A stretch of 64,000 nt of DNA, taken from the NCBI RefSeq assembly GCF_026210795.1, contig NC_089433.1, positions 1,860,001-1,924,000 on the forward strand, written 5' to 3'. Of the stretch, positions 414-48,939 are shown in pieces. The translations under genes were made by a program, and so were the position numbers. How positions within the stretch are numbered: position 1 is the stretch's first letter; each line of letters starts with the position of its first letter. The notes beneath the pieces were generated by a model. It saw only the letters and a list, made by a program, of their open reading frames with translations. It had not been told where the DNA came from and made no database searches. Source of the stretch: Rhizophagus irregularis. Taxonomy: Eukaryota.

Positions 414-429
414 CACTGGTCAAAAACCA
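414..429 (-). repeat. Outermost copy of the left TIR end / LINE target-site duplication CACTGGTCAAAAACCA
   Basis: Identical 16-mer at 414, 1687 and 9864. Confidence 0.9.
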
Positions 430-1686
430 GGGTAAACATAGCATGAGCTTGAATTTTATTAATTAATGCCGAAGTAACTTTAGAGAAACACAGAGTGATC
501 TAAAAAGTACCGCAACAAGTGCAGAACTAATAGAAAAACAAAGAACAAATAATCTTCCGAAATTACAAATAAGAAAAGCTAAGATTAAAAACCCCACCCT
601 CTCTATATAAATAACTACGGCTACTCCCCCCAAATATATCTCAAAATGAGTAAAGTCGACTATGCTATACGTAACCCATCCAGCACCGTACCCACTCCTA
701 GAATCGGTAAAGAACCTCCGAGCTACCATTAGCACTATCAAAAACGCCTAAAATTCAATTTCCCCTATTTGACTACATACTATGGATAACAAACCTATTT
801 CACAAAGACCTCCGGGAACTTTTTAGTGTCGTGCAGTCCAGCCGATGGGGAACTTTTTAGTGTCGTGCAATCCCCAAAGGGACACCCACCTCATTTTGAA
901 CGATCCCAAACGGAGGACACCCACCTCATTGCGAACAATCCATCGACCTAAGATCTACCTAGATAAGTCAATCCAATGATAGTCCATCATGTGACCACCT
1001 TGATCGGCATACTACAAAAACTGCGGTACCCAACCTGTCACCCCCCTTATCACCCCAATGATGATCGATTTTGAAAATTGTAACACCAAGCCACCATGAC
1101 GATCAAATTTTCCAGTATCCCCCCACCCCCCAAAGAAAATAAGGTTACACCGAAAAAAGCGACCAAGAAAAACAAAAAGCAAAAAATAAAGACATAAACC
1201 TCAGGAAAACTCGAAGTGCAATGAGAAAAACCTGAGTAAAATTCACCAAACATACACCTCAACTCCGTCTCCTTATTTTAGAAGACTAACTCCCCAGTTA
1301 ACAACATCAACTAGCAAGAAATACGTTGGTCAGGAGCTCCTTCCAAGAAATACCGGTCCGGCCTGCGAACCATTTGGCCAGTTAGACTTTAAAGGCGTAG
1401 GAACCAAGACGCACTACTTTTCAACCTTTCAGAAAGCCCAGGGGAACGTTCGTATGGAACTGCCATCTTACAGTATTATTGGTAACTCCAAGACTCATGA
1501 TAACGGTCCTAACTCAATATAAGCCGTAAGGAGTTCGGGCGAAACTAAAGACCTCAGTAATAGCTTCATATAACGTCGAAAAGTCCTTTTACTATCACTC
1601 AAGGCAAAAAATCATCATATTTTTCATCCATAACTTCATGGGAAAAAATGGGCAGAGCCCAACGGGGGAGAAAGTACGATCATCAT
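430..1686 (-). mobile_element. Divergent ~1.26-kb retroelement (5'-truncated sister LINE or SINE-like element) inserted in the same TIR target
   Basis: Flanked by direct copies of the target 16-mer. Its 3' end (taataaaattcaagctcatgctatgtttaccct) resembles the LINE 3' end (taataaagataaaggctactatgccacatttgcct). It shares the tagcatagt motif ~230 nt upstream of the end. No convincing ORF. Short internal tandem duplications at ~813-875 and ~879-940. Confidence 0.65.
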
Positions 1687-1959
1687 CACTGGTCAAAAAC
1701 CAGGCAAATGTGGCATAGTAGCCTTTATCTTTATTAAATTTATTCGAACTTTACAATTTACAAAAAATAAAAAAGAAAATATAAAAATAAAACTAACTAA
1801 AAACAAAGCTATATAGTCTCCTAAGAAAAAATAAAGTAAAAAATTAATCTAAAAAGAAGAAAAATCGCATTACACTAAATTTCCCCAGATCTTCCCCCTT
1901 GATATATTCCAACCAAAGTAGAAGCAACTATGCTAACAAAATAACGAATAGCGCGCCCA

Positions 1960-4900
1960 CTATAGAAATCGACACTCCATCCTGCAAAAGCTGTTATTAA
2001 GTAGCACCGTTAGACGACCCATAAAACCCGAAAAGTGATTAAACCAAGGCAAACCATATTTCATCGAGTTCTTCAACCAATCGGTTCCGGAGTCACGTGA
2101 ATTGTGTAGGGTCGGAGGTGGTAAAGATGAGTAAGGTATGTACGTTGACAATGGCAAATTAGAAGGCTTCGGAGTAGTTTTCAACTTATAAGTAATATTC
2201 ATCGCGTTTTCCCATCTACTTTTCTCATAAGAACGCGGATTCCAAATTCGTTTTCTGAATTTTTGGACAAAATTATTATGAATAGCAGCGATAACCTAAA
2301 TCGCAGAGATTCTTGGAATAGACAAATCGACTAGGATGTCAATAAAAAGTGTAGGTAAACAACCACGGACAAGGGCGTATGAGGACCAATTTGTAGAAGA
2401 AAAGGACCAGCATGAAAGAGAAGTGAGTTTAGCAATAAAGGGAGTAGGATCAATATCAGCCAATTTTCCAGCTTCTTGAATTTTAGAAATCAAATGATTT
2501 TGATAAGATTGGAGAATTTGTTGCATAGGTAGACGACGTTTTTTGCACATAAAAAGGTGCATCAGGTCTTCCATGCGATCAATACAAGAACGGCAAGTTA
2601 ATTCGTCCATGTATAAGTCTGGTCGAGTCCGCTTAAGCTTTTCCAACGTGGGTAAGTCGTCCAAGAAAAGTTTGAATTTAAAGGTTAAGTGTCTTGAAGC
2701 ATGCTCAAGAGTAAAAGATGCATCATGAGAAGGCTTGAAATTCAAGGTAAACCAAGTTAGTTCCCAGTCGACAATATATTCTATATTAGATAATAATAAA
2801 GAAATAAAGTGAAATCGCGTTAAATTTAACAAATCACGCATTAACTGCGTTTGATAATACTGTTTAAGAAGGTGTCGTGAATTAGTTTCACAAACGGCGT
2901 CATTGTCGTAAGTCAAAACGAAATCATGGGCAGAAGCAAGGTCCATTCCAGAAATCAAAATACTGGATGATGCGGTATGGGCAGTATTGGCCAGGGAGTC
3001 AGCAAAATCGTTCAAATAATTGCCAGAATGAGCTTTAACTTTAACAGGAAGAACTGTCAAATTCTTGGTAAGGATAGTTCATTCAATAATGGCCCAAAGC
3101 TCAAAATTTGTTGTTTTGTAGTAAAGACGGCTATTTGAGTAGACATAGGAAGAGCAACTTCGAAGGCCATCAATGGCAGTTTGCGAGTCAGTATAAATAG
3201 TAACTTCTGAGTCGCGAGGAGAAATGGTTAAAACTGCGTAAATAGCGGCAGCTTCAGCACGAGAAGAAGAAGGGTTATCTCGAATGATGCCATGTGCATA
3301 AGTAGCAATGGAATTAGGAAAACCAGCATCAGGTACGATTTGCATCCAAGACCAGCCCATAGAAACATTAGGAGTGCCTAGATTAATAAGAGACCCATCA
3401 GTAAAAAAGATATAACGTGAGTCTGAAGACACAACCAACGGCGAATTTGCAAAAACAGCAGCAGCTGAGGATTCAATAGTGATAAGAGGAGCGGAAACTT
3501 CAACAATATCGTCAGGAGGAGAGTCAAAATCAAAATCCAATCGACTGTAATAAAGACGGACACCATCTTCTATATCAGCCTAGGTAAAAGGAGAGGATAC
3601 TGCAGAAGTATTACGTCTAATGCGCTCATTGATGGTGGGCAGAATAAGCGAATGTTGTAGAGAAACCGTAGGCGTACAAAGGGTTAAATCAGCATTCCGT
3701 TTTTTGGAAGGAGGCAAAGGAGTATGAGCAGCACAACCAGGGCAAGGAGAGAGTCTAATGAGATCACCAGGCGAAGATTCACAATCAGGAGAGACCCAGT
3801 GAACAATAGAACAAGTACCACGACTTGCTTGAACTAAAAGTTGTTTGCCAAAGATGGGAGAACCGTAGTCGTCTAACGTGACAATCCAATTTTTCGTAGT
3901 GGTAGGAGAGGACAGGCAAGGAGTCAATTCATAAAATGAAGAGTCAATCGTAGGCGTAGTAATGAACTGGGTCAGCAAACGATTGTTGGTGTCAGGAATG
4001 GTAGTAGCTTGCTGGATATCTTTATACCAATAAGGGATACAGCCAGGACCACGTCGTCCAACCAAATTGTCATAGTAGGCTTTCCAAGAAATTAAATGAG
4101 TCCCTTGGGGAGTAACAAGCTGAGATAGATAAAACAAATGCCGTTTTCGCAAAATAGGGAAATAGGCTTTAAATGCTTTAAGTGTCATGCATTCAAATAA
4201 GGGAACGCGTCCATCCATCAAAGTCAGGTTCGGAAGCTTCGAAAGTTGAGTATGAAGCAAACGAAAAGGAGTAGAGGATAAGAGAGCAATAGTGCATGCG
4301 ATATAATCTTTCTTAAAAGAAAAAGAGAAGACCATATAGACCAATCCTTAATTAAAAGGGGAGAAATAGGAATTAAAAAATTATATTGAATCAAACTCAA
4401 TCTATAAATAAAAAGAGATTGAATAAAAGAAAAGGAAGAATTAGCCATTAAAAATAAATTAGTAATATGACATTGTCGTTGATGAGCAAATAAATTTATC
4501 AAGCCCAAGGCTTGAGATAAAAATAAAATGGGATTTGGTAAAGAGCGAGAAAAATTTGCTTTATGCTTTACAACAGATCGTATACTTCTCGTTATTAGGT
4601 GGCAGTCAGATTCAGACAAGTGAGTAACTTGCATCCGGTATTCAAGTTTCGGTATAAGGACAGCATTATGTAAATAAACAACTTGTTTGGATGAGAGCTT
4701 TGCAGGGCGGATGGTTGCAGCGAAGGAGCAACATTCACGTTTGAGTTGCTTTTTGACAAAATCCCGGGAGTTTTTAATGTTGAACCAGACACCTAAAAAA
4801 CGAAAAGAAGTTGTCATGGAAATTGGGGTAATAGTAATGGAAGGAACACTATTTAAAGAGGATAAATCCAAGTTAAAAGTAATAGGGAGTAAAGTGGAAT

Positions 4901-7586
4901 TCGAAGTCAAGGGCAACGAATTAGTAATTAACACATATTTGTTATGATTGGCAGAAGTGTTATTAATTTGATAGAATTCTTCTGTAATGGATAACATAAA
5001 TTCCATGCCAGTCTTCGACGAGGAAATAAGAGTAGAGTTATCCATAAATACTAAATTATTAATCTTCAAATCGGAAGAAGGATTGGGAGAAGCAATTAAG
5101 GATGGTGTAGAAAGAACATAAGGGTCCATCATTTCATGCTTCATGACAGTAAGTAAGGGATCAATATAAATAACCCATAAGAGAGGAGAAATAACTTCGC
5201 CTTGGTCAATACCAATGCGAACCCTATAAGCAGGCGTAGATCCATGAGCAGTGAAAACGCTATTAATGCGTTTTGTGAAAAGGGAAAGAATAAACTTAAT
5301 AGCAGAAGCTGGAAGACGTATTCGTTCTAAAGCGAAACGTAACATTGTCAAATCAACCGAGTCAAAAGCTTTAGAAATGTCTTGAGAGAGAATCCAAAGT
5401 GGGTTTTTGTTGACATCAGCATCATGGATAATAGATTCTAGAGTAATAATAGGGTCGCGGCAAGAACCACCAGGAAGACCAGCGAAGTTACCACCTTTAA
5501 GAACATCATGTGTAGCCATAATAGTAGAAAGGCGATTATAAAAGAGTTTGACAAGAGATTTTCTAATCACTTCAAGTAAAGTAATAGGACGAGTATTTTT
5601 CAATTGACATTTCCATTCGTGAGGTTTGGGAATGGGAAAAACCATTGCCTGTCGCCATAAGTCAGGAATATCAGCTTTGGAAAGGCAAGCTTGAATTAAA
5701 ATAAGGAGTAGAGCCGAGGAACGAGATCCAAGGTGTTTGAGCATTTCATAAGTGATCATGGAAGGACCTGAGGCTTTACCGTTAGGAGTAGAAGAAACGG
5801 TGGTTAACCATTCATCAAGGGTAGGGGGATTCATTAAAGAATCATAGATGGAGGAGGGCACATCATCCATAGGTTGGTAAACAGAAGACCATCTATCAGG
5901 TAATGTATCTACAGATACAGGAGGAGTGGATTTTATAGGTACAAAGTTTTGGAAATGGTTAACAACAGCATCGTCTATATCCTTGGGAGCAGTTAATAAC
6001 TGAGGGCGAGTGGGATGATCAACAAAGACACGATCCAAAGTGATACGGCGGCGGGTGCGAGAAAGCGCTGAATCAATGAAAGAGGAAAGGTCGGTTTCAA
6101 AATTATTGTTCCTATCGTCCAAATGAGCACGAATGGAGGAATCTTGGAATTCTTTTTCTTGAAGTAAATGAAATCCCCGTAAGGATTTTGAAATATTGGA
6201 TAAATCATCAAGAAGTGACTTGAAATCATCTTGTCGACATGATGAGAGAGAAGAGGGCAAAGCAGGAACGAAAGTAAATACATTCTTATATAATTGCAAA
6301 ATGTTTTGAAGTCTGATTAAATGAATAGACCACTTATGTTCATGAGCGGCAGAATAAGTTAAAGGATATTTGCGCAATAAACGTATTGAATGCATAAGGC
6401 GATTTAAAAACCGATAATGTTGGGTTAAAATTTCCAGATCTTTAGGAACCTTAGGAGTATAATTATTGCCAACGGTGAAAGAAGGTAGTGTAACGTTGGC
6501 AGCTTTAAGAATTCGTGATTGGAGATATTCGCACATTTGATTGATATGCCAGGAGGAAAAGGTTGAAGGTGAGACGTCACATAAAGCATCAGCTTTATCA
6601 GCAAAATCCGTCCATTGAATTTCAGTTACAGAATCAAATTTGAAGACGCGACGGGTTCGGCGCTTAAGTTGTCGAGCGCGAGCCAATTTGGTAGAGGCAA
6701 AAAGTAAAGACATATCATAGTATGTTATGACGGGGTTATGATCAGATGTGCAAACATCTTGAGCATTAAAAATGCAAGCAGTAAGAGCAAATCCTTTGAG
6801 AAGAGGGCAGGACCATACATAATCAACTCGAGTAATGTGGTCATTGCGATGAAAGGTACCTAAGGAGTCGGAAAGATTAATAGGAGTATAGTCTTCATAT
6901 CCGTGAGAGAGGAGATGAAAAAATAATCGGTGAATATGTTTTGAAGCAACTTGAGGTTGATTGAAGTAAATAGGGTAATATTTGTCTAAATGCATATTAA
7001 AATCGCCACAAACAGCATGGTAAAAGCCAGCATGTTTAGTAAGGGTAAGTTGTTGAATGAGCAAATCAATAGTATCAGTGCGCAGAACACTTTCAGCAGG
7101 GGGAGGGATATAAATAACAAATATACGCAATTTAATATTGCCTTTGAAATATAAATCAACAGAAAGTAACCGTGAAGAATGCGATTTAAAATCTTGAACA
7201 TGTGAAGCAAGGGAATTTTCTATAAAAAGAGAAACACCACCAGAAGAGAGAATTTGTTTAGAAGTATCCAAATTAGAAGAGAACACAGTATAATTAGAAA
7301 TACGTTTGGATAAAAACTTCATTTGTTTAGGGTGAAGATGAGTATCCACGATACCACCAAAGGAAATATGTTTTAAGGAAAAGAAAGTAGAAATTTCTTC
7401 TAATTTAGTCTGACCATACATTTTAAGGCCATTAACATTAAAGGAAGAAATATTAAATGAATTGGGGATAGGGGAAGTGTTACTGGAAGAGGAAAATAAC
7501 GATTCATGCGAAAAAATTCCAGTAACATTGTCAGGGTTGGGAGGGTTTCGTACAAAGGTATCATAATTAAAATTATTGTTCGACAT
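1960..7586 (-). pseudogene. LINE copy 1 ORF2 (APE endonuclease, reverse transcriptase, RNase H, C-terminal zinc finger), disrupted
   Basis: SFNVNGL, GDFN and SDHNPV (APE); QDISKAFDSV and GIDQGEVISPLL (RT), with catalytic FMDD changed to FMDN; FTDGS, YTDSQ and VKAHSG (RNase H); CRSC..EDLMHLFMC. Split over five ORFs by stops and frameshifts. Confidence 0.93.
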
Positions 7587-7636
7587 TAAAACACAATGAT
7601 ATAAACAGTCGGGGAGTTAAAATTTGAAGAAAGAAA

Positions 7637-9753
7637 TTAATTGGAAGAAGCTGAATCAGCTTGTTCCAGGGGAGCACCACCAAGGGAGCCAATGAATTGC
7701 TTGATATGACCAGTAAGTTGGTCCTATTTACTTTTAATAGCGACACGACTATTTTTGAGATCATTAATTTCTTCTTGTGTGGAGGAGATGGGAGTAAAAG
7801 GAGGAGCATTTGGAGAAAGGTGAGAAGAAGGAGGTGATGTGTCAGGAACAATAGTGAATGTAGGCGAAGGTCGCGTTAAAATACTTTTGGGAGGCAGCGA
7901 AGATTTAGCGGAAGACAGAATATTAAGAGGAACATGAGTTACAGGGGCATCTTCTTGCATGAGGTCCGGTTCAGGTTCATTGGGTATAGGGAGTGGATCA
8001 AGGCCAAGGTGTGATTCAATACGAGTCATCCGTTGGTCAGCAAGTTCAAGAGCGGAGATGCGTTTGTGAAAGTTAGCAACTTCACATTGTAATTCTCGTA
8101 AAAGGTTTAGAATGTTGTTAGCATCATCAGGAGATAATGCAAAGTTAGGAGTTTGTCGGGGTAAGGGACGTGCTGTAGAACGAGAGGAGGAAGAAAAGGA
8201 GACAGATCGTTCTTTACTATTATGGCGGGCACGTTGAGAAGTATTGGGAGGGGGTTTGTTATGATTACTATTATCATTATTAGTGCGGTCATGGGAAGCG
8301 TTATTGGCTCGTCCAGAATTGGAAGCAGATCGATCTTTAGATTTGGAGCGAGATCGAGAGCGAGAACGTGCATTGGCAATATTAGAATTGGAGCGAGGTT
8401 GATTAACATTGAATCGTTCTTTGAGTTTTGCAACAGGGTCGCAAGTGCGGCTTCTACCTCTGGTTTGTTTGAGTGGGCAAAAATTAGGAGCACAACCTAG
8501 TTTGCCACATCTGTGACAAAGTTTATTAGTATTATCGGGGAGGACCAGAAAAGCACTTTGCCTTGGAAGCTAACAGTCTGTTCCATAGCAGCATCCATGG
8601 TTTCTTGGGAGTTGAAGGTGACATAGGCCCATCTTTTGGGTTTGTAGGAATTTAAAGAAAGAGGAACATTGACAGCTTTTGCACCAAAATCGCGTGTAAG
8701 AGGAGCCAAGTTGATATCCTTAACATTGGGAGGAAGTTGAGTGAGGGTGGCAACGTATTGACGGCGCGCAGCCTTTTGATCCACAGTATAGAAACATGGA
8801 GTAATTCGGAGACAGGTGGAGAAACAGTAAACAGCCCATTGGTCGGTAAAACGAGCAATTGAATCGGCGTGATCATACACAATACGGGCTTGCTGGACTT
8901 TAGCATTAGGCCTGGAGAAGAGGCGACAAGAGGTAATATTACCAAATTTTTTGAAATAGGCCATGAGGTTGTCCTTTTTGATAAAGAAAGGGATATCGGT
9001 AACTTGGATAGCCTGGAGATCTTCATTGGATCGGAGTTGGCGAGGGTCATGGGCATGAAAGATTAAGTCAGGGAACTCAGGATGGGTGGAACCAACGCAC
9101 AAATCGCGTGCTTCAGCGGTATGGAAGTGGATAACGAGGCGTTTAGCCTCACCAGAACCTGTCATACAAGCTTTTCCAGTGAATGACTCGTACGTTTCTA
9201 AGAAAAGGTTATTCACAGCCTCAATAAGGGCTTTATTGGTAGGGAATTTCTTGAGTGATTCAGGGGCAGCATTCGGCGCAGCCGCAGCCTGAAAATCATC
9301 TCTGGTTATGGCAAAGGTCACCACTGGATCTGGGGTTTGATCGCCATCAGGAGCACCATTAGTATTCAAATTGGGCGACGCGTTAGGGGGTTGTTGCAAG
9401 TCTTTGTTTGAAGGTGCATGCATGGACGCGTCCACATTTCCAGAAGACGCGACGTGACTGGGCGCAGTTGGCACAGCAGATCTTTTCGGGGAGGAGGCCA
9501 AAGTATTTTCGCCAGAGATATTTTGTTGAGGAGAAGAGGAAGGTCCATCTACTCCAACGTCAGCCGTCTGGTCATCGGCAACGTAGTCTTCTTCCATAGA
9601 ATTTTCGGTAATCGTACGATTACGTTTCTGCTGGATAGTGTTTTCGCCATCGGAGCTTCGAATTATCGGAGTTGTTATTATTTTTCCGTTCTTGACGGGA
9701 AGCTTTCCTACTGTTAGGGTTATGGCTTCCGCGCCTTCTCGCTATTAGGACAT
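7637..9753 (-). pseudogene. LINE copy 1 ORF1 (gag-like nucleic-acid-binding protein), frameshifted
   Basis: Fragments 8497-9597 and 7724-8029 match ORF1 of the plus-strand copies. RRM-like motifs are present. Confidence 0.88.
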
Positions 9754-10107
9754 AGTAGAGGGCTTCGAGTTAATATATAAAATATAAAATTTTATTAGTA
9801 GCTTGTATTATTTTTTAATAATAAAAAATTAATTTCGTCAGAAAATTTCGTTTTTGAAAAATTCACTGGTCAAAAACCAATATATTGGGTAGCAGATATG
9901 TATCAGATATGTACCCGATATGTGTAGTATTAATGCAGAAAATCGGGTACCCGATATGTGTAAGATATATGTAAATATATATATCATATATATATCGGGT
10001 ACCGATATATATATGATATGTAAATAATATGTAGACGATATATATATTTACACATATCTTACATATATCGGGTACCCGATTTTCTGCATTAATACTACAC
10101 ATATTGG

Positions 10108-10863
10108 TAGGGATGGTAAAGTCCTAAGTCCTGGACCTAAAGACCTGGTCCTAGGACCTGGTCTGCAGATCTTTAGGTCCAAATTTTGGACCAGAAGCGG
10201 ACCAGGTCCTAAAAAGTCCTAGCCAATAAGGTTATAAGAGATCTATATGTTTAAATTATATATGTATAATTTGCTGTAAATTTGATTTTAAGTAATTATA
10301 AATTATAAAAAAGTGCACTGCAATATTGCAATACAATTTTTATATTATTAAAATCATATAAAAAATGAGTTGCGATATTGCGATTCACATTTTTATATTA
10401 ATATCAATATAAAAAAGTGAATCGCGATACCGCAACTCACTTTTTTTATATAAAATCAATATAAAAAAGTGAATCGCGATACCGCAACTCACTTTTTTTT
10501 ATATAAAATCAATATAAAAAAGTGAATCCCGATACCGCAACTCACTGTTTTTATATAAAATCAATATAAAAAAGTGAATCCCGATACCGCAACTCACTTT
10601 TTTTATATAAAATCAATATAAAAAAGTGAATCCCGATACTGCAACTCACTTTTTTTATATAAAATCAATATAAAAAAGTGAATCCCGATATCGCAACTCA
10701 CTTTTTTTGTATTTAATTATTACTAAAATTCATAAAATCTATAAATAACTTAGTCAGGACCAGGTCCAGGACTGGTCCTAACAGGACTGGTCCGCAGGTC
10801 CGTTCAATAGGACTTATAGGTCCTAGGACCAGGACCGGATCAGGACCGACCTAACCATCCCTA
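10108..10863. mobile_element. hAT-type MITE (756 bp) nested in the CACTA MITE
   Basis: TIR TAGGGATGGT...ACCATCCCTA. 8-bp TSD catattgg/catatcgg (1 mismatch). Subterminal GGACC/GGTCC motifs. Confidence 0.88.
10340..10710. repeat. Tandem repeat, ~52-53-bp unit, about 6-7 copies, each with an internal inverted repeat
   Basis: Unit tataaaaaagtgaatcccgataccgcaactcacttttttttatataaaatcaa. Confidence 0.9.
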
Positions 10864-10921
10864 CATATCGGGTACATATCTGATACATATCTGCTACCCG
10901 ATATATTGGTTTTTGACTAGT

Positions 10922-13732: not shown

Positions 13733-13990
13733 TGGACGCGCTATTCGTTATTTTGTTAGCATAGTTGCTTCTACTTTGGTTGGAATATATCAAGGGGGAA
13801 GATCTGGGGAAATTTAGTGTAATGCGATTTTTCTTTTTTTTAGATTAATTTTTTTACTTTATTTTTTCTTAGGAGACTATATAGCTTTGTTTTTAGTTAG
13901 TTTTATTTTTATATTTTCTTTTTATTTTTTTGTAAATTGTAAAGTTCGAATAAATTTAATAAAGATAAAGGCTACTATGCCACGTTTGCC
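10922..13990 (+). mobile_element. LINE copy 2, 5'-truncated (~3.07 kb)
   Basis: Starts inside ORF2 directly after TGGTTTTTGACTAGT (10907-10921) and ends before the same 15-mer (13991-14005). Confidence 0.95.
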
Positions 13991-14005
13991 TGGTTTTTGA
14001 CTAGT

Positions 14006-17000: not shown

Positions 17001-17397
17001 ACCTACACTTTTTATTGACATCTTAGTCGATTTGTCTATTCCAAGAATCTCTGCGATTAAGGTTATCGCTGCTATTCATAATAATTTTGTCCAAAAATTC
17101 AGAAAACGAATTTGGAATCCGCGTTCTTATGAGAAAAGTAGATGGGAAAACGCGATGAATATTACTTATAAGTTGAAAACTACTCCGAAGCCTTCTAATT
17201 TGCCATTGTCAACGTACATACCTTACTCATCTTTACCTCCTCCGACCCTACATGATTCACGTGACTCCGGAACCGATTGGTTGAAGAACTCGATGAAATA
17301 TGGTTTGCCTTGGTTTAATCACTTTTCGGGTTTTATGGGTCGTCTAACGGTGCTACTTAATAACAGCTTTTGCAGGATGGAGTGTCGATTTCTATAG
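14006..17397 (+). pseudogene. LINE copy 3 ORF2 (partial RT, RNase H, zinc finger), open but 5'-truncated
   Basis: 1130-aa uninterrupted ORF with GIDQGEVISPLL, VFMDDS, FTDGS and CRSC..HLFMC. Confidence 0.9.
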
Positions 17398-17653
17398 TGG
17401 GCGCGCTATTCGTTATTTTGTTAGCATAGTTGCTTCTACTTTGGTTGGAATATATCAAGGGGGAAGATCTGGGGAAATTTAGTGTAATGCGATTTTTCTT
17501 TTTTTAGATTAATTTTTTACTTTATTTTTTCTTAGGAGACTATATAGCTTTGTTTTTAGTTAGTTTTATTTTTATATTTTCTTTTTATTTTTTTGTAAAT
17601 TGTAAAGTTCGAATAAATTTAATAAAGATAAAGGCTACTATGCCACGTTTGCC
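14006..17653 (+). mobile_element. LINE copy 3, 5'-truncated (~3.65 kb)
   Basis: Begins within RT. Flanked by TGGTTTTTGACTAGT at 13991 and 17654. Confidence 0.95.
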
Positions 17654-19910: not shown

Positions 19911-19959
19911 TTTTCTTCTTAAACTTTTACTCCCCGACTGTTTTTATCATTGTGTTTTA

Positions 19960-33802: not shown

Positions 33803-34079
33803 TGGGCGCGCTGTTCGTTATTTTGTTAGCATAGTTGCTTCTACTTTGGTTGGAATATATCAAGGGGGAAGATCTGGGGAAATTTAGTGTAATGCGATTT
33901 TTCTTTTTTTTAGATTAATTTTTTTACTTTATTTTTTCTTAGAAGACTATATAGCTTTGTTTTTTAATTAGTTTTATTTCTATATTTTTCTTTTTATTTT
34001 TTTTTGTAAATTGTAAAGTTCGAATAAATTTAATAAAGATAAAGGCTACTATGCCACGTTTGCCTGGTTTTTGACTAGT

Positions 34080-36739: not shown

Positions 36740-37019
36740 TGGTTTTTGATTAGTAGTAGTAACTCTCTCCTGAATTTTTCAAAAACGAAAATTTTCGATG
36801 AAAATAATTTTATATTATTTTTAAAAAATAATACAAGCTACTAATAAAATTTTATATTTTATATATTCCCAACTCAAAGCCCTCTACTATGTCTGGTAAC
36901 TATGCCAAGAGAGGCTGTGAAAGCCACAACCCTAACAGTAGGAAAGCTTCCCGTCAAGAACGAAAAAATAATAATAACTCCGATAACTCAAGCTCCGATG
37001 GTGAAAACACTATCCAGCA

Positions 37020-37263
37020 TAAGGTTGCTTGTCTAAACCTCTTCAAAATCCTACGATTAGTTTCGTCAAAATTTTACTATAGATTTATTATAGTTTCGGC
37101 AGAGTTTCGGCAGTTTCGGCATTTATAATAAGTTTCGGCAGTTTCGCCTTTTTCCAAAGTTTCGCCAGTTTTTTAATATAACTTTAATATAGTTTCGCCA
37201 GAATTTCGCTTTTCGGCGAAACGCCATCTTGCCTAAACCCCTAGGTTTCGGCAAGCAACCTTA
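37020..37263. mobile_element. hAT-type MITE (244 bp)
   Basis: TIR TAAGGTTGCTTG...CAAGCAACCTTA. Perfect 8-bp TSD atccagca. Internal gtttcg[g/c]c motifs. Confidence 0.92.
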
Positions 37264-39489
37264 ATCCAGCAGAAACGTAATCGTACGATTACCAAAAATT
37301 CTATGGAAGAAGACTACGTTGCTGATACCCAGACGGCTGACGTTGGAGTAGATGGACCTTCCTCTTCTCCTCAACAAAATATCTCTGGCGAAAATACTTT
37401 GACCTCCTCCCCGAAAAACTCTGCTGCGCCAACTGCGCCCAGTCACGTCGCGTCTACTGGAAATGTGGACGCGTCTATGCATGCGCCTTCTAACAAAGAC
37501 TTGCAACAACCCCCTAATGTGTCGCCTGATATAGATATTACTGGTGCTCCAGAAGGTGATCATACTCCCGATCCAGTGGTGACCCTTGCCATAACTAGAG
37601 ATGATTTTCAGGCTGCAGCTGCGCCAAATGCTGCTCCTGAATCTCTCAAGAAATTCCCTACCAATAAAGCCCTTATCGAGGCTGTTAATAATCTTTTTTT
37701 AGAAACATACGAGTCATTCACTGGAAAAGCTCGTATGTTTGGTTCTGGCGAGGCTAAACGCCTCGTTATCCACTTCCATACCGCTGAAGCACGTGATTTA
37801 TGCGTTGGTTCTTCTCATCCTGAGTTCTCTGACTTGATCTTTCATGTCTATGACCCTCGCCAACTTCGCTCTAATAAAGATCTCTGGGCTATCCAAGTTA
37901 CCGATATCTCTTTCTTCATTAAAAAGGATAATCTAATGGCTTACTTCAAAAAATTTGGCAATATCACCTCTTGCCGCCTTTTTTCTAGGCCCAATGCCAA
38001 AGTCCAACAAGCTCGTATCGTTTATGATCATGCCGATTCAATTGTTCGCTTTACTGATCAATGGGCTGTATACTGTTTTTCCACCTGTCTCAGGATCACT
38101 CCATGCTTCTATACTGTGGATCAAAAGGCTGCGCGCCGACAATACGTCGCCACCCTCACTCAACTTCCCCCCAATGTTAAGGATATCAACTTGGCTCCTC
38201 TTACTCATGACCTTGGTGCTAAAGCTGTCAAAGTACCGCTTTCCTTAAATTCGTACAAACCCAAAAGATGGGCCTACGTTACTTTCAATTCCCAAGAAAC
38301 CATGGATGCTGCTATGGAACAAACTGTCAGCTTCCAAGGCAAGGTGTTTTTTTGGTCCTCCCCAGATAATACTAATAAACTTTGTCACAGATGTGGCAAA
38401 TTAGGTTGTGCCCCGAATTTCTGTCCACGCAAACAAACTAGAGGACGTACTCGTACTTGCGACTCCGTGGCTAAACTCAAAGAGCGATTTAATGTCAATC
38501 AACCTCCTCGCCGCTCTATTCCCAATGCTGCTAATTCACGTTCTTGCTCCCGATCTCGCTCAAAATCAAGAGATCGATCGGCTTCTGCTTCCAGACATGA
38601 TATTAATAATTCTCAAGACCACAATAACAATATTAATAATAATAATATACCCAATCCCAATACCTCACGACATGCCCGGCATAATAGTAAAGAATGATCG
38701 GTCTCTTTTTCTTCCTCCTCTCATTCTATTACACGCACCTTGCTCCGACAAACTCCAAATTTTGCATTATCTTCTGATGATGCCAACAACATCTTAAACC
38801 TTTTGCGTGAATTGCAATGTGAAGTTGCAAATTTTCATAAACGCATCTCCGCTCTTGAACTTGCTGACTAACGGATGGCTCGAATCGAAACACACCTTGG
38901 CCTTGATCCGCTTCCTTCATCCAATGAACCTGATTTGGATCTCATGCAAGATGATGCCCCCATATCCCATGTTCCGCTTAACATTCAACCCTCTGCTAAA
39001 GCTTCCTTGCCCCCCAAAAGTATTTTAACGCGACCTCTGCCTCTAACCACTATTGTTTCTAACACGTCGCCTCCTTCTTCTCATCTTTCCCCAAATGCTC
39101 CTTCCTTTCACTAGTCGAAAAAGGACAATTCGGCCTAAATTTGACCAGGTCGAATATAGGTCGAATAATGGTCTAACCTGTGTCAAATTGAGGTCGAATT
39201 TTCGGGCGCATTTAGGGTGCCAATCGTCCCAAATTCGGACTAATTATTCGACCATTATTTAGGTTTAAATTGACCAATATTCGACCTTAAAACTTTAAGC
39301 CGAATTATGGTCTAATAACAACCCATTTATTTATGAATTTATTTTGATTTTTTTTATCAAATTTATTAAATAAATGTATTTATTAATGCTTAAATACTTT
39401 ATAATTATATTATTATTATTGCATCTATCTAATTTACAAAAAATATTGCTAATTCAAATACAATTCCACAATTACATGATTCATGTATT

Positions 39490-41330
39490 CGTATATACGA
39501 ATCTTTGATTGTTCTTTAGCAATCCACCCGAACCTATAAAAAAAAGAGAAGAACGGTTAGTAACCGTTCATAATATTAAAAAAAATAAGAAAAAAAACCA
39601 AGATTCGTACTTACTTACGAATCTTTGGTTTTTTCCGTTCTTCAGAAGACACCTGAGACACCTGAGACCTAAAAAGAAAAGAAAAGAACGGTTATTAGTA
39701 ACCGTTCATAATAATATTAAAAAAAAATCAAAAAAATAAACCAAGATTCGTACTTACGAATCTTGGTTCTTCTTTTCCCGAAGGTCGGAAGCCCACTCCA
39801 CCCGATCCTAAAAAAAAGAAAGAACGGTTATTAGTAACCGTTCATTAATATTGAAAAAAAAATCAAAAAAAAATAAACCAAGATTCGTACTTACGAATCT
39901 TGGTTCCTCTTTTCCCAAAGGTCAGAAGCCCACCCGATCCTAAAAAAAAGAAAGAACGGTTATTAGTAACCGTTCGTAATATTAAAAAAAAAAATTAAAA
40001 AAAATAAACCAAGATTCGTACTTACGAATCTTGGTTCTTCTTTTCCCGAAGGTCGGAAGCCCACTCCACCCGATCCTAAAAAAGAAAGAACGGTTATTAG
40101 TAACCGTTCATTAATATTAAAAAAAAAATTAAAAAAAATTAAACCAAGATTCGTACTTACGAATCTTGGTTTTTCCACACAAAAGCCCGCCCGAACCTAT
40201 AAAAAAGAAAGGAACGGTTAGTAAACCGTTCCAAAATGATAAAAAAATAAAAATAAAAATAAAAAATATATAAAGATTCGTACTGTACTTACGAATCTTT
40301 ATCTTTGGGTTTTCGTTCTTCGGAAGCCCACCCGAACCTAAAAAAAAAAAGAAAGAATGGTTAGTAAACCATTCGTAATAATAATAAATAAAAAAGATTA
40401 AAGATTCGTACTTACGAATCTTTGGGTTTTCGTTCTTCGGAAGCCCACCCGAACCTATAAAAAAAAAGAAAGAATGGTTAGTAAACCATTCGTAATAATA
40501 ATAAATAAAAACAAAAATTAAAGATTCGTACTTACGAATCTTTGGGTTTTCGTTCTTCGGAAGCCCACCCGATCCTAAAAAAAAGAAAAGAACGGTTATT
40601 AGTAAACCGTTCATATATTAAAAAAAAAACAAAAAAATTAAACCAAGATTCGTACTTACTTACGAATCTTGGTTTCTTGGTTTTCCTTTCTTCGGAAGCC
40701 CACCAGATCCTAAAAAAAAGAAAGAACGGTTATTAGTAACCGTTCGTAATATTTTTTTTAAAAACAATAAAAAAAAAAATCCAAGATTCTTACGAATCTT
40801 TGGAGATTTCCGTTCTTCGGAACACGGAAGCCCACCCGAACGGCCGAACCTATAAAAAATAAAAGAACGGTTATTAGTAACCGTTCGTAATATTTTTTTA
40901 AAAAAAATAAAAAAAAATCCAAGATTCTTACGAATCTTGGAATTTTCCCGTTCTTCGGAACACGGAAGCCCATCCGATCCTAAAAAAAAGAAAAAGAACG
41001 GTTATTAGTAACCGTTCATAATATTAAAAAAAAATAAAAAAAAATAAGATTCGTACGTGAATCTTTGGGTTTTCGTTCTTCGGAAGCCCTCCCGAACCTA
41101 TAAAAAAAAATACAAGAACGGTTAGTAAACCGTTCGTAATAATAAAAAAATAACAAAAATAAATTAAAGATTTGTACTTACGAATCTTTGGGTTTTCCGT
41201 TCTTCGGAAGCCCACCCGAACCTAAAAAAAAGAAAGAACGGTTAGTAAACCGTTCATAACGATAATATTTAAAAAAAACAAAAAAAAAAAAAAATATTTG
41301 ATTCGTAATACAATACTTACGAATCTTAAA
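39490..41330 (-). repeat. Tandem ~120-135-bp double-hairpin modules (about 14) with intron-like signals on the minus strand
   Basis: Each unit on the minus strand reads ...aagattc|GTAAGTAcgaatctt...gaacggtTACTAATaaccgttc tttcttttttttTAG|gatcgggtgggcttc... Confidence 0.85.
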
Positions 41331-41349
41331 ATACTCTTTCGGAAATCCA

Positions 41350-41870
41350 TCTCCTTTCATTTTACCCTTCCCCTTTCGTTTTCCCCTTTCATTTTCCCCT
41401 TTCGTTTCACCCTTTCGTTTTCCCCTTTCGTTTTCCCCTTTCGTTTTCCCCTTTCGTTTTACCCTTTCGTTTTACCCTTTTGTTTTCCCCTTTCGTTTTC
41501 CCCTTTCTTTTCCCCTTTCGTTTTCCCCTTTCTTTTCCATTTTCCTTTTCCTTTCGTTTTACCCTATCCCTTTCGTTTTTAAGCCCTTCCCCGTTTTTAA
41601 GCTTCCCCTTTCGTTTTTAGCTTCCCCTTTCGTTTTTAGCTTCCCCTTTCGTTTTTAGCTTCCTTTCGTTTTTAGCTTCCCCTTTCGTTTTTAGCTTCCC
41701 CTTTCGTTTTTAGCTTCCCCTTTCGTTTTTAGCTTCCCCTTTCGTTTTTAGCTTCCCCTTTCATTTTTTCGCTTCCCTTTCGTTTTTAGCTTCCCCTTTC
41801 ATTTTTTCGCTTCCCTTTCATTTTTCGCTTCCCCTCTCGTTTTCTCTTCCCTTTCGTTTTCACTTCCTCT
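41350..41870. repeat. Pyrimidine-rich minisatellite (ttcccctttcgtt 12-13-mer, then ttcccctttcgtttttagc 19-mer)
   Basis: Direct reading. Confidence 0.9.
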
Positions 41871-43849
41871 TGAAACCTATAAAAAAACAAGAACGGCTGG
41901 TAAACCGTTCTATAATATTAAAAAAAATCCACTATTCGTAATAATACTTACGAATCTCAGTCACGTCTTGGATCTACAAAAGCAAAAAACGAAAACGTTA
42001 GTAAAACGTTTCGTTAAAAAACAACAAAATAAAATTTGAAGGTATATATATACCTTCGAAATAGGAGTCCGGCCTTCTAAATGGGCGTCTTGGACCTACA
42101 AAAGAAAAAAAAAACTGAGGGACGAAGGGAAAGGGGAAAGGGGAAAAGGATAAGAAAAGTAAAGGGACGAAGGGAAGTAAAAGGAGGGAAAGAGGAACGA
42201 AGGGAAAGGGGAAGGGGAAGAAAGAAAATTAAAAAAAGTTTAAAAAAGAATGCAATAAGATGATCCTTTTTTAAACTTTTAATACGCGTAACGCGTAACG
42301 CGTAACGTTTATTCAACAAGGTTGAATATATGTCTAATCGTAGATCATTACTAATTGAAGTCGAATTTTTTAATTTTAGTCGAATATAGGCCGAATTGTA
42401 TTAAGGCCGAATGTTCCTTTTTCGACTAGTGTTTACCCCATCTCCTCCACACAAGAAGAAATCAACGATCTCAAAAATAGCAGAGTCGTTATTGAAAGTA
42501 AATTGGACCAACTGACTGGTCATATCCAACAATTTATTAGCTCCATTGGTGGTGCTTCCCTGGAACAAGCTGATTCAGCTTCTTCCAATTAATTTTCTTC
42601 TTTAAATTTTTACTCCTCGACTATTTTTTATCATTGTGTTTTAATGTCGGACAATAATTTTAATTATGACACCTTTGTACAAAACCCTCCCAACCTTGAC
42701 GAAGCTACTAAAATTTTTTCGCATGAATCGTTATTTTCTTTCCCTAGTAATACTTCTTTTATCTCCAATTCATTTAATATTTCTTCTTTTAATGTTAATG
42801 GCCTTAAAATGTATGGTCAAACTAAATTAGAAGAACTTTCAACTTTTTTTCTTTAAAACATATTTCCTTTGGTGGTATCGTTGATACTCATCTTCACCCC
42901 AAACAAATGAAGTTTTTATCCAAGCGCATTTCTAATTATACTGTATTCTCTTCTGATTTGGATACTTCTAAACAAATTCTTTCTTCTGGTGGTGTTTCTC
43001 TTTTTATAGAAAATTCCCTTGCTTCACATGTCCAAGATTTTAAATCTCATTCTTCACGTTTGCTTTCCGTTGATTTATATTTTAAAGGTAACGTTAAATT
43101 TCGTATATTTGTTATTTATATCCCTCTCCCTGCTGAGAGTGTTTTGCGCTCTGACACTATTGATTTGCTTATTCAACAACTTACCCTCACCAAACAATCT
43201 GGTTTTCATCATGCTGTTTGTAGCGATTTTAATATGCATTTAGACAAATAGTATCATATATATTTTAATCAACCCCAAATTGCCTCGAAATATATTCACC
43301 GATTATTTTTTCATCTCCTTTCTCATGGATATGAAGATTGTACTCCTATTAATTTTTTTAACTCCTTAGGTACCTTTCATCGCAATGACCTAGTTACTCG
43401 TGTTGATTATGTATGGTCCTGCCCTCTTCTCAAAGGATTCGCTCTCACTGCTTACATTTTTGATGCTCAAGACATTTGCACTTCTGATCATAACCCTGTC
43501 ATTACATATTATGATATGTCTTTGCTTATTGCCTCCACCAAATTGGCTCGCGCTCGACAACTTAAGCGCCAGACCCGTCGTGTCTTCAAATTTGACTCTG
43601 TTACTGACTCTCAATGGACGGATTTTACTGACTATGCTGATAATTTATGTGATGCTTCTCCTTCAACCTTTTTCTCTTGGCATATCAATCAAATGTGTGA
43701 ATATCTCCAATCACGAATCCTTAAAGCCATCAACGCTACTTTACCTTCTTCTACCGTTGGCAACAATTATACTCCTAAGGTCCCTAAAGATCTGGAAATT
43801 TTAACTCAACATTATCGGTTTCTAAATCGCCTTATGCATTCAATACGCC

Positions 43850-46800
43850 CAGTGATGTGCTTGGAAGGCTTCCAATGACTTTTTGTTGGAATTGGAAGGC
43901 CTGTTGGAAGATTTGGAAGTATTGGAAGATTTCAATCTTCCAATAGGTCATGTGCATTGGAAGCTTCCAATCAAAATTTTGTACTATTGGAATTGGCTAT
44001 TGGAAGATCAATACCGCTTCCAATGCTTCCAATACTATTTCGGTAATAGTACAATAAAAAAATTTAATCAACACGTCATTTAATCATCTTTTTCTCACGC
44101 TTTCTAAAATGAGTACTAAAAGAAAATATAAACCAAAAAATCATCGTTTAACACAATATATAAAAGTGCTTGGCAAACAAAATAGTTGGAATAATTATGC
44201 TGTTTGTCTTGCATGTTCTGAAAATTTAGAAGAGAACGAACTGTCAAAGCTTACATTTACAAATAAAAAACCACAAGTAAAAAATCATTTAAAAAATTGT
44301 GCATTTTTTCGGAAAAAAATTGGTAGTCAGGAAGAAGTGGATGCTATTATTAATCTAACAGACAATGAAAGTGAGGAAATCGCAAAGAAAAAATGTTTAA
44401 TAGCAGATTCAGATTCTGGTAAGATTGGAAGAGAAAAGGTGTTAAGATACTTGGAATCTATGCAAAGTAATCTTGATACTGTATTTTTTAAAACAATAGA
44501 AGGAGAAATTTCTTCAGCTCGATCCTTTGCCTCAACATCAACAACGTCATCTAAACGCCACCTTCATCCAGTTAAAACTGGTGATAATGTAATGGGAAAT
44601 ATTCTTGTTCAGACGCCTACAAAAAAAGAGCAACCTGTTTTTGAACGTCTTTTATTAAGAGTAACAGTATCAAATGGATTTCCATTTCAATGGATCGAAA
44701 ATCAAGCAACATTGGATTTATTTGAGTTTTTAAATCCACACCTAATTTTACCAGGACGAAAAGTACTATCAAATCGTATATTGAATAATGAAACAGAAAG
44801 TGTAGATAAATTACGAAATGAAAAATTAAGTAATGATCAGATTGGTGTAACATTAGCGTTCGATGGATGGAAGAATGTATTAAATCAGCATATATTTGGA
44901 TCATTATTTATTACATCTTCGGGTGAAATTTTAATATGGAAGGCATCAGATATTAGCAGTGAAAAAGAACGTATGATTGAAATAATTCCTAAAATTGAGG
45001 ATTTAATTAAAGATGCAGGAGTTGACTTAGGTGCAAAAATAATTGCTATAATTTCAGATAGTGCAGCAGCTTATGCTGGAGCTCGGTAAGAATTAAGTAA
45101 ATTTGATTTATAAACCATCTATAACGCATTTTATATTATTATTACTGAAAAATAACTCATATTTTTTTTTTATTCATCTTTTAGACGACGACTTCGGTTA
45201 GAATATCCTCATATTATTTTCTTACCATGTTTCGCACATCAATGTCAGTTAGCGATCTGTGATATCTTTAAAGAATCACCTACATTAAAAAGTGCATCAG
45301 CAAAAGCAATCACAGTATCAGCATATTTTAAAAATGGAAATAATAGCTATTTTATCGGTAAATTACGTGATATACAAAAAGAATTATATAATAAGTATTA
45401 TTCAATTATGGTTCCATGCGAAACTAGGTGGAACAGCCATTTCTATTGTTTTAAAAGTTTAATTCGATCTAAACAGGCATTAAGGGTAATATAATTTTCT
45501 TAAATTTAATATTATTTGATTCATTCCATTTAGTTAATTTATTATTCTTATTAATATTCTTTAGAATTTGGCAATTCGGCATGAGCGTCCACAATCTACA
45601 CCAGCAGAAGCAAGTACTTCAACATCAAATAATACCAATGAAATTTATTTGAATAAAGACATTTGTAAAATTCTTCTTGATAATGATTGGTGGAATACAA
45701 TAGAATCTTTACAAGAAGTTTTATTACCTTATTGTGGCGTTTTAAATAAGCTTCAAAGTGACAAAGCACGTCTTTTTGAATTACTTCATGCATTAGGATA
45801 TTTTATTCAGTTTTGGAATCAGTTTCCAAATATTGAATTAGGTGAAAAAATGATAGAACGATTAGAAAAATGGTGGAATCAATGGGAGCAGCCATTACTT
45901 TTGCTTTCATTTATGCTCCATCCAAAGTATCGGCTTACATATTTCAATCCTAGTATTGAAAATTTGTCATTTACTACATTGGGACGCTATTTAACATATT
46001 ATTATAAGGCGTGGTTTCAGAAAAGACCAACCCGTTTATTGTTAGATTTTGAGGATTATCGCCAAAAAAATGAACCATTTGATGATGAAACTTTTGGACA
46101 ATTTGGTGGTGATGTATTCAAGTTCTGGAAGTATATTGAAGGTGATTATAAAGAATTAGCCAGTATTGCTCTAAGAATTTTCGGAATCTGTGTAAATGCT
46201 GCTTCAGTAGAACGCATGTGGTCTTCCATGGGATTTTTGCATACGAATCGTCGTAACCAATTGAATGTAAGTTCTATTAATAAATTTTAATAATAGTTAT
46301 TTAAAATTTGCTAATTTAATTAATTTTTTTAGAATGACAAAGTTTTATCAATGAGTAAACTTCGTGCATCTATTAATTTCTCACTTAGGAAAAAAGAATT
46401 GCAAAAAAATGAAGCAGAGTTTTTTGATTTAAATGCTAAACCGGTTGATGATTCTGCAGAAAATTTACAACAAAATCCTATAGATGATGAAGAAATTACT
46501 GGAGATGAAAATATTATAACTTCTGAGCGTTGGGAAAATGAACTTGCTGAATGTGAATCAATGTTAATAGAAGAAGAGATATCCCGATTGGAAGAAGAAG
46601 AAGCCTTAAGAGATAATCCAGGAAGTTTGAGAGGTGACCTTTTGACAGAATATACACATCCGGCAATTGATACTAGGGCAAAATGGGATCTTAAAACTTT
46701 ATTTAGTTCTGTTATTGATATTCCTAAATACTTATCAAACGAATCAATTTAAATAATAATGTTTGTTTTTTCCCATTATTTGTAACAGTTTATATATAAC

Positions 46801-47017
46801 ATAATTTACTAAATAAAATTTAGTTGCTCAAACTTTTAAATGTATATTTTTAAAGTTTTATTAATAAATGTCAATAAATATTTCTATTGGATAAAAAATA
46901 TGTCACGTGAATTAAGTGCTTCCAATCTTCCAATAGAAATCTATTGGCGTTGGAAGGTTTGGAATTGGAAGAATTGGAAGATTCCAATAGCTTCCAATCT
47001 TCCAACGCACATCACTG
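43850..47017 (+). mobile_element. hAT DNA transposon (3168 bp), potentially autonomous
   Basis: TIR CAGTGATGTGC...GCACATCACTG. Perfect 8-bp TSD aatacgcc. Subterminal ttggaa/ttccaa repeats. Contains a transposase gene. Confidence 0.95.
44109..46752 (+). CDS. hAT transposase, spliced: 44109-45085, 45185-45485, 45565-46266, 46333-46752 (799 aa; a further in-frame 81-nt intron at 44419-44499 is possible)
   Basis: BED-like AVCLAC..NHLKNC, LAFDGWKN, IISDSAA, PCFAH, PCETRWNS, ASVERMWS (catalytic E, dimerisation region). GT-AG introns join the exons in frame. Confidence 0.9.
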
Positions 47018-48939
47018 AATACGCCTATTGCGTAAATATCCTTCAACTTATTCTGTTGCTCACAATTATAAATGGTCTATTCACTTGCATAGACTTCAAA
47101 ACATTCTTCAATTGTATAAGAAAGTGTTCACTTCTATTCCCACCTTGCCTTCTTCTCTTTCATCATGTCGACAAGATAACTTCAAGTCACTTCTTGATAC
47201 TTTATCTAATATCTCAAAATCCTTACGAGGACTTCATTTATTACAAGAAAAAGAATTTCAAGACTCCTCCATTCGAGCTCACTTGGACGATAGAAACAAT
47301 AATTTCGAGACTGACCTTTCCTCCTTTATTGATTCAGCGCTCTCTCGTACTCATCGCCATATTACTTTAGACCGTGTCTTTATTGACCATCCTACTCAGC
47401 CTCAGTTATTAACTGATCCTAAGACCATAGATGATGCTGTTGTTAACCATTTCCAAAACTTTGTTCCGATAAAGTCCACTCCCCCGGTATCTATCGAAAC
47501 TCTACCCGATAGATGGTCTTCTGCCTATCGACCTATAGATGATGTGTCATCCTCCATCTATGATTCTTTAATGAATCCTCCTACCCTTGATGAATGGTTA
47601 TCCATCGTTTCTTCCACCCCTAATGGGAAAGCCTCTGGTCCTTCCATGATTACCTATGAAATGCTCAAACACCTTGGAACTCGTACCTCGGCTTTGCTCC
47701 TCATTTTAATTCAAGCTTGCCTTTCCAAAGCTGATATTCCCGACTTATGGTGACAAGCAATGGTTTTTCCCATTCCCAAGCCTCACGAATGGAAGTGTCA
47801 ATTAAAAAATACTCGCCCTATTACTTTACTTGAAGTGATTAGAAAATCTCTTGTCAAACTTTTTTATAATCGCCTTTCTGCTATTATGCTTCACATGATG
47901 TTCTTAAAGGTGGTAACTTCGCTGGTCTTCCTGGTAGTTCTTGCCACGACCCTATCATTACTCTAAAATCTATTATCCATGATGCTGATATCAACAAAAA
48001 TCCACTTTGGATTCTTTCCCAAGATATCTCTAAAGCTTTTGACTCGGTCGATCTGACAATGCTACGTTTTGCTCTAGAACGTATACGTCTTCCTGCTTCT
48101 GCTGTTAAGTTTATCCTTTCACTTTTCACGAAGCGCACTAATCGCGTTTTCACTGCTCATGGATCTACGCCTGCTTATAGGGTTCGCATTGGTATTGACC
48201 AAGGCGAAGTTATTTCTCCTCTTTTATGGGTTATTTATATTGATCCCTTGCTTACTGTTTTGAAGAACGAAATGATAGACCCCTATGTTCTTTCTACACC
48301 ATCTTTAATTGGTTCTTTAAGTCCTTCTCCTGATATGAAGATTAATAATTTAGTATTTATGGATGACTCTACTCTTATTTCCTCGTCAAAAGCTGGCATG
48401 GAATTTATGTTATCCATTACTGAAGAATTCTATCAGATTAATAACACTTCTGCCAATCATAACAAATATGTGTTAATTACAAATTCGTTGCCCTTGACTT
48501 CGAATTCTTCTTTATTTCCTATTACTTTTAATTTAGATTTATCATCTTTAAATAGTGTTCCTTCTATCACTATTATCCCAATTCCCATGACAACTTCTTT
48601 CCGTTTTTTAGGTGTTTGGTTCAACATTAAAAGCTCCCGTGATTTTGTCAAAAAACAACTCAAACACGAATGCTGCTCCTTTGCTGCAACCATTCGACCC
48701 GCAAAGCTTTCCTCCAAACAAGTTGTGTATTTACATAATGCTGTTCTTATACTGAAACTCGAATACCGGATGCAACATTTGCAAATTGAATACGGCGTAA
48801 TATTACAAAAATTTACGCCTGCGAAATACTCCGTAAATTTACATGACCTTCGAAAAATTACGCAACAGTAATATTTCGTAATTTCAACGCAATATTTTGT
48901 AAGTTTACGCGTAATATTTCGTAGAATTACAGTGTAATA

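Follow-up and report, generated by a model that had tools for sequence, protein, structure and literature searches.

A stretch of 64,000 nucleotides of the Rhizophagus irregularis genome (NC_089433.1, positions 1,860,001 to 1,924,000, hereafter the window) carries seven copies of a long interspersed nuclear element (LINE) and one non-coding element, which are stacked head-to-tail and point outward on both ends of one CACTA-type miniature inverted-repeat transposable element (MITE; 9864..10921). The MITE is palindromic, with CACTGGTCAAAAACCA at its left end and TGGTTTTTGACTAGT, without the terminal G, at its right end, and its two terminal inverted repeats (TIRs) differ by a single base. CACTA-type elements are recognised by TIRs that start with CACTA or CACTG, and such a start is present in the left CACTGGTCAAAAACCA as well as in the right allele CACTAGTCAAAAACCA, which is complete at 17654-17669. 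An initial annotation had described a CACTA MITE of 1 kb; its ends are indeed of CACTA type, but its true size is ~294 bp, a palindrome with arms nearly identical over ~125 bp, and the remainder is a nested hAT-like MITE of 756 bp (10108..10863) with TAGGGATGG ends and an 8-bp target-site duplication (TSD; CATATTGG/CATATCGG).

Left of the MITE, on the minus strand, lie the non-coding element c1 (430..1686), whose likeness to the LINE is confined to its tail, and c2 (1703..9863), a near full-length LINE of a young subfamily with one frameshift and three stops in open reading frame 2 (ORF2). To the right, on the plus strand, follow c3 (10922..13990) and c4 (14006..17653), both 5'-truncated and with ORF2 open from codons ~940 and ~747, respectively, c4 having the fewest private changes (0.36%); c5 (17670..25843), near full-length, in which ORF1 encodes an RNA recognition motif (RRM) and ORF2, with two stops, an apurinic/apyrimidinic (APE) endonuclease, a reverse transcriptase (RT) and an RNase H; c6 (25876..34064), full-length with the native 5' end AACTCTCTCC and with two stops and two frameshifts in ORF2; c7 (34080..36739), a 5'-truncated copy of a diverged subfamily (~12%); and c8 (36755..48775), a decayed LINE with a full-length start, the 3' part of which is missing from the window after 48775, where the right outer flank of the MITE is also lost. 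One ~200-bp insertion with the short inverted ends CACACGTC...GACCTGTGTG is nested in c7 close to the end of ORF2 (near 36187-36388). Three elements are nested in c8, namely a 244-bp MITE in ORF1 (37020-37263; TAAGGTTGCTTG ends, 8-bp TSD ATCCAGCA), a CACTA element (39109-42431) and a hAT element (43850-47017) with matches to DUF659 and a dimerisation domain, apparent introns and an 8-bp TSD AATACGCC. The nested CACTA element is related to the MITE and serves as a control, as it has the TIR CACTAGTCGAAAAAGG, a 3-bp TSD TTT that is fixed by the reading frame of the c8 LINE, and a LINE at neither end. TSDs of 2-3 bp are characteristic of CACTA/EnSpm elements. It is non-autonomous and contains ~130-bp internal tandem repeats, of which a second copy lies at the start of the window (76-411, aligning with 39487-41327) and forms the flank of the outermost left target copy. 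The first 400 bases of the window match these internal repeats, so the insertion site of the MITE was itself a copy of a CACTA element.

The elements are separated by copies of a short motif, TGGTTTTTGACTAGT, which has ten matches with at most two mismatches across the window, compared with a mean of 0.33 and a maximum of three in 100 shuffled sequences, none of which reached ten (0/100). Minus-strand copies lie at 414/415, 1687/1688 and 9864/9865, and plus-strand copies at 10907, 13991, 17654, 25844, 25861, 34065 and 36740. All eight elements start directly after a motif copy, with short trinucleotide repeats in between for c1 (GATGATGAT) and c8 (AGTAGT), and all seven visible 3' ends stop directly before one, with a poly-A tail at none of them (0/7). 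The end of the LINE (...GTTTGCC) thereby adjoins TGGTTTTTGACYAGT(G), and the 5' ends are preceded by the same motif whether truncated or not. The positions of the motif, the stops at all seven visible 3' ends and the outward orientation on both sides of the MITE had been proposed in the initial annotation and are confirmed here, as is the start of every element after the motif, with the qualification that c1 and c8 are offset by their trinucleotide repeats.

The sequence of the motif differs between the two sides of the MITE. The three left copies (414, 1687 and 9864) are complete 16-mers CACTGGTCAAAAACCA and all carry the allele GACCAGT, while this allele is found in none of the seven right copies, of which four read GACTAGT, two GATTAGT and one AACTAGC. 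The left-hand c2 and the right-hand c4 are 98.5% identical, yet their motif alleles differ by side, so that the motif tracks the place and not the element. Thus, the motif behaves as a TSD of 15-16 bp. The outermost left copy (414..429, minus strand) is a complete 16-mer TGGTTTTTGACCAGTG with the left-TIR allele, and a further 16-mer with the left allele separates the 3' end of c2 from the 5' end of c1 (1687..1702, minus strand). On the plus strand, exact 15-mers are located at 13991..14005 and 34065..34079, and the 16-mer at 17654..17669 shares a TG with the 5' end of the following LINE (microhomology). The copy at 36740..36754 has the allele GATTAGT, followed by AGTAGT, while 25844..25875 is a double target, TGGTTTTTAACTAGC-AG-TGGTTTTTGATTAGT, of which at least one copy was likely brought in by the 5' end of the c6 RNA.

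The copies c2-c8 belong to one LINE family with an RRM in ORF1 and an APE endonuclease, RT and RNase H in ORF2, and show what defines an APE-type LINE: a nucleic-acid-binding domain in ORF1, an APE endonuclease, an RT of the type lacking long terminal repeats, and a fixed 3' end combined with variable 5' truncation and a TSD. RRM_1 scores above the cut-off in ORF1 of c2, c5, c6 and c8, and RVT_1 is found in ORF2 with an E-value of 2.6e-21. When an alignment profile is compared with known structures, the top matches are human L1 ORF2p (95 bits) and R2 (91 bits), a gap that places the LINE in no clade and lends no support to a link with Tx1, and the L1 endonuclease (E 5e-8) and RNase HI are also matched. 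The N-terminal endonuclease of ORF2 groups with Exo_endo_phos clusters by its atlas features (0.96). A fragment of c5 ORF2 (residues 200-700) is 93-97% identical to many R. irregularis proteins and ~56-76% identical to relatives from R. clarus, and the named matches among the at least 120 listed all come from Rhizophagus, besides two JGI records without an organism. The 3' tails of the LINE fold no better than shuffled sequences (z -0.95 to 1.0). Part of the 3' untranslated region (UTR; 17400-17560 and equivalents) is unusually conserved for a UTR, in that R. clarus gene models translate a nearly identical peptide.

By contrast, c1 had been counted as an eighth LINE, which has to be abandoned, as it has no homology to ORF1, ORF2 or the body of the family. 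It yields no blastn match with c5, only weak tblastx and tblastn matches (E 0.13 or worse), and no tblastn match at E<=1e-3 from 331 collected proteins. Its longest internal ORF spans 110 amino acids, and its likeness to the LINE is limited to the last ~45 nucleotides of the tail. Judged by its sequence, c1 is likely either a non-autonomous passenger or partner of the LINE, or an unrelated 3' UTR.

From c3 to c8, private substitutions amount to 0.78, 0.36, 1.51, 1.41, 6.4 and 7.4%, and nested insertions number 0, 0, 0, 0, 1 and 3 plus a break. In a tree, c5 pairs with c6, and c3 and c4 group with c2. The resulting outward order of subfamilies (c3 and c4, then c5 and c6, then c7 and c8) has a chance of 1/90 under random order, with the classes having been set after the tree was seen. 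The younger subfamilies on the inside appear to reflect a bias toward the MITE-adjacent site and not a strict polarity. The alignment of c5 and c6 contains a stretch at ~7000-7500 nucleotides with 10.8% difference, compared with 3-5% elsewhere, which suggests recombination or conversion between subfamilies.

Evidence from other loci was drawn from public gene models as a proxy (the 331 collected proteins). The 3' junction is crossed in an open frame by five of the 331 models, all five of which read GYYA(T/M)FA-WFLTS, the translation of tail and motif. These five continue into a 5'-truncated LINE with truncation points absent from the window, and represent two loci on a 4.32-Mb contig. Furthermore, P0178/P0220, which represent one locus on a 2.01-Mb contig, start with a MITE-core peptide, followed by a young truncated LINE that is 98% identical to c2 and c4, while P0026 begins in the arm of another CACTA family, read outward, and continues into a sister LINE (RT region: 82%). 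At the join, P0178/P0220 and P0026 have one residue that is not native to the LINE, and this would be the residue encoded by the last bases of the TIR, TG, if an intron ends at the AG that precedes them in ...GACTAGTG. With such splicing, these models would place a MITE end next to a LINE, and the end of another CACTA family next to a LINE, at two further loci. Two R. clarus gene models have the end of ORF2 fused to ORF1 sequence, suggesting head-to-tail copies in this species too. Runs of consecutive accessions among the family gene models were left out as possible isoforms, nor were models treated as independent evidence when they showed complete identity to c6 or c3 in the compared stretches, since they may stem from that very locus.

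In addition, contigs of four public sequencing runs (four of 24 listed, from at most three studies) were compared with 17350-17950. At least three, three and four contigs of runs X2, X6 and X14, respectively, follow this stretch across the motif before diverging, and run X3 includes a contig with an independent doubled junction; contig ends were counted from 24 of 260 loose-end rows, and the runs may share loci. Searches with the LINE 3'-end pattern returned no match in metagenome, viral and prokaryote DNA collections. Related loci were found on 16 distant metagenome contigs, none of which has the motif at up to three mismatches, and on none of the genome contigs searched. Of the junction-peptide searches, one gave 46 proteins, none crossing the junction, and two gave no match. 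One of the metagenome contigs (L007) has a G+C-rich, bacterial-looking start (1-250) joined to an AT-rich distant relative of the LINE and is possibly chimeric.

Taken as a whole, the junctions are best explained if the LINE reaches the ends of the CACTA-type MITE by target-primed reverse transcription following cleavage 15-16 bp inward from the transposon end, a reading to which we assign a probability of roughly 0.7. The junctions display this geometry directly, with the endonuclease of the LINE as the presumed cutting agent. The putative endonuclease would nick the bottom strand between ATATAT and TGGTTTTT, and the top strand would be cut at the outer edge of the transposon or one base before it. 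Duplication of the 15-16 bp between the cuts would provide a fresh site at each insertion, and the inverted orientation of the two TIRs of the MITE would make the arrays point away from it. The MITE-adjacent site appears to be favoured, with regenerated sites probably being used as well. The target looks like a preferred one and is probably not the only one. Full-length RNAs would probably start upstream and include a 5' target copy, resulting in doubled junctions, and the non-coding c1, having a similar tail, probably borrows the same machinery. Regeneration of the target as a TSD had been put forward in the initial annotation, and the comparison of left and right alleles supports it, as does the recurrence of the same junction in gene models of other loci.

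Several observations weigh against this reading. The Pfam endonuclease scores are 18.7-25.2 bits, under the cut-off of 27.4, and the position that we take to correspond to E43 of L1 appears to be Asp (by eye from VDTH). The private changes of the copies are mostly synonymous (nonsynonymous/synonymous ratio 0.41-0.86), so that divergence ranks subfamilies and not insertion dates, and c7 is free of stops over 702 codons. At 25844 and 36740, the alleles are unlike those of their upstream partners, which strict polarity would not lead one to expect; strictly polar growth of the array was considered and is weakened by these junction alleles. Together with the X3 contig, the two alleles suggest that full-length RNAs carry a 5' target copy and that a distal, regenerated site may have received c6. 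The sample of gene models favours tandem copies, since a crossing is visible only where a downstream frame exists. Finally, at least eight, four, four and seven contigs in the four runs depart right after GTTTGCCT, and the bases past these off-motif tail ends (GCCT) show a consensus A with low agreement in unrelated A-rich sequence. Such contigs are to be read as copies, or tail-sharing relatives, at other sites. Since off-motif contigs end at GCCT in all four runs, targeting is not absolute, and the exclusive targeting of the TIR that had been assumed initially is not supported.

Among the alternatives, the LINE could borrow the CACTA transposase, through tethering or through nicks at transposon ends, and use its own endonuclease at most for the inner cut. 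On its outer side, the duplication stops within one base of the transposon end, which is where a transposase cuts, and the sister LINE in P0026 apparently adjoins the end of a different CACTA family with nothing but GACTAGTG and a T-run in common, as would be expected from such help. However, regenerated sites 3-26 kb from the subterminal repeats of the MITE were apparently used (25844 and 36740), the related CACTA element at 39109-42431 is unoccupied at both ends, and the APE motifs are largely kept, so that transposase help is rather improbable. It is very unlikely that the motif belongs to the ends of the LINE's own RNA, in which case self-targeting or template jumps would build the arrays and the likeness to the MITE TIR would be secondary. 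Although the full-length c6 and the X3 contig have an extra 5' motif with alleles absent from this MITE, the left copies all carry the left-TIR allele, the motif also precedes truncated copies and it forms the end of the ~125-bp inverted arm of the MITE; moreover, contigs exist that carry the tail ending at GCCT without the motif, which is thus not an obligatory part of the LINE. A loose sequence preference, with a hotspot that selection maintains locally and the majority of LINE copies elsewhere, is just as unlikely as an origin of the motif in the RNA: the off-motif contigs are the largest loose-end class among the rows listed in each run and the region is dense with nested transposons, but the junctions are base-exact at all seven visible 3' ends, at both other loci where gene models cross the junction, and also in contigs that have different flanks.

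Segmental duplication, unequal crossing-over or an assembly artefact can be set aside as extremely improbable, because the truncation points differ, c3, c4 and c7 beginning at ORF2 codons ~940, ~747 and ~1144, each directly after the motif, and because the copies are 1.5-12.5% diverged, with no pair above 98.5% identity, lie on opposite strands and have counterparts in public gene models with the same type of junction and other truncation points, against which stand an 11.9-kb self-alignment, a mosaic appearance of c6 in one 500-bp window and the common 5' junction of c2 and c5, two copies that are nevertheless 7.5% diverged. The independent retrotranspositions proposed in the initial annotation are supported by the same truncation points and divergence.

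More speculatively, targeted insertion at the MITE ends could be one instance of a wider radiation among fungal LINEs that have specialised in CACTA termini, with different subfamilies tracking different CACTA families via the end that the transposase recognises. Each insertion would move an intact 16-bp end outward and could clip the inner one, either disarming the host transposon or turning the array into cargo that the transposase can move. This extension is possible, if on balance unlikely; if true, it would describe a retrotransposon that rides the DNA transposon it has parasitised. Targeting as such would widen the range of transposon-on-transposon insertion, known from the Tx1 elements of vertebrates, by a fungal host and by a new type of site, a terminal repeat. 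Because the transposase itself has to read this repeat, direct competition or cooperation of the two elements is predicted. Targeting would also account for the nucleation of multi-kilobase LINE arrays in the genomes of arbuscular mycorrhizal fungi. With its defined target of 15-16 bp, the young and almost intact subfamily makes the specificity of an APE endonuclease testable outside animals and is a possible insertion tool for a fungus without one, and the history of each array can be read from the left and right TIR alleles.

Further repeats lie beyond the array. An element at 50074-51145 has 93-bp inverted ends (99%) and a 264-bp palindrome (97%; 50525-51059) and is situated inside a ~155-bp tandem repeat, and in 53241-62433 an AT-rich unit of ~2.9 kb is repeated in tandem about three times, with shorter repeats inside each copy. 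An Rfam search of 1-20000 returned 12 weak miRNA-like matches on MITE hairpins, none reaching the gathering score, and a search of the sequence for tRNAs found none.

The following comparison draws on the available portions of the cited sources. For R. irregularis, LINEs as well as recent, expressed CMC-EnSpm elements have been reported, and targeting is not mentioned in the portion available (PMC8647823). In the literature searched, Repbase, subscription journals and supplements excepted, no LINE was found that uses CACTA termini, nor was the target of this family described. The strategy has more precedent than the initial annotation supposed: LINEs that target DNA transposons and stack in them have precedents in Tx1L and Tx1-Mar/SINEU-3, but the combination of a terminal repeat as the site, both ends occupied and a fungal host was not found in that literature. 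Grem-LINE1 of Mucor circinelloides is pericentromeric and encodes a zinc finger, an AP endonuclease, an RT and a zf-RVT domain (10.1101/706580). Like Grem-LINE1, the present LINE is an L1-like two-ORF element of an early-diverging fungus that is clustered in the genome; unlike here, the available description of Grem-LINE1, taken by itself, gives no sequence target and lists neither RNase H nor RRM. HeT-A/TART and R2 also form head-to-tail arrays, in which 5' ends contain upstream or target sequence from read-through transcription. They sit at chromosome ends or in ribosomal DNA, not at a transposon terminus, and belong to other clades. Co-transcription of R2 is mentioned in PMC4494074.

Closer parallels are found among vertebrate elements. 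In Xenopus laevis, Tx1L and Tx2L are APE-type LINEs that occupy a fixed site in the non-autonomous Tx1D and Tx2D (PMC4494074; PMC1950540; PMC6719617), with the target specificity of Tx1L lying in the endonuclease (PMC1950540), and the strategy of LINEs targeting DNA transposons is also described in PMC6719617 and PMC8869645. Unlike the CACTA-type MITE, the target of these LINEs is of piggyBac type, and outward arrays on both termini are not described for them in the available portions. Tx1-9_AMi inserts into Harbinger transposons ~300 bp inward of the 5' end and not at the terminus (PMC4494074), and resembles the present LINE in that one LINE family has related DNA-transposon families as targets. 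The closest match is provided by the crocodilian Tx1-Mar LINEs and SINEU-3 in Mariner-N4_AMi, where a 16-bp TSD is generated and sequential tandem insertions sandwich it (Kojima 2015, PMC4494074). The strength of their preference depends on the family (13% to 90%), with hotspots at ~240 and ~830 of Mariner, and target-derived 5' extensions suggest transcription from upstream (PMC4494074). As is likely for the present array, a LINE and a non-autonomous partner prefer a non-autonomous DNA transposon and stack across the TSD. The available account of Tx1-Mar mentions no terminal repeats, whereas here the terminal 15-16 bp of the TIR serve as the site, at both ends, and the present system further differs in its fungal host, its CACTA-type target and the RNase H of its LINE. 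A target preference of Tx1 elements is recognised when a repeat or transposon is present in >20% of flanks (PMC4494074); the motif is present at the 3' junction in 7/7 cases in the window and at 2/2 other gene-model loci, with off-motif contigs in 4/4 runs. The Tx1 group is characterised as found in animals (PMC4494074), while the named matches of the present LINE, among those listed, are from Rhizophagus. By analogy, the LINE is best regarded as working like Tx1-Mar, yet it is not filed as Tx1.

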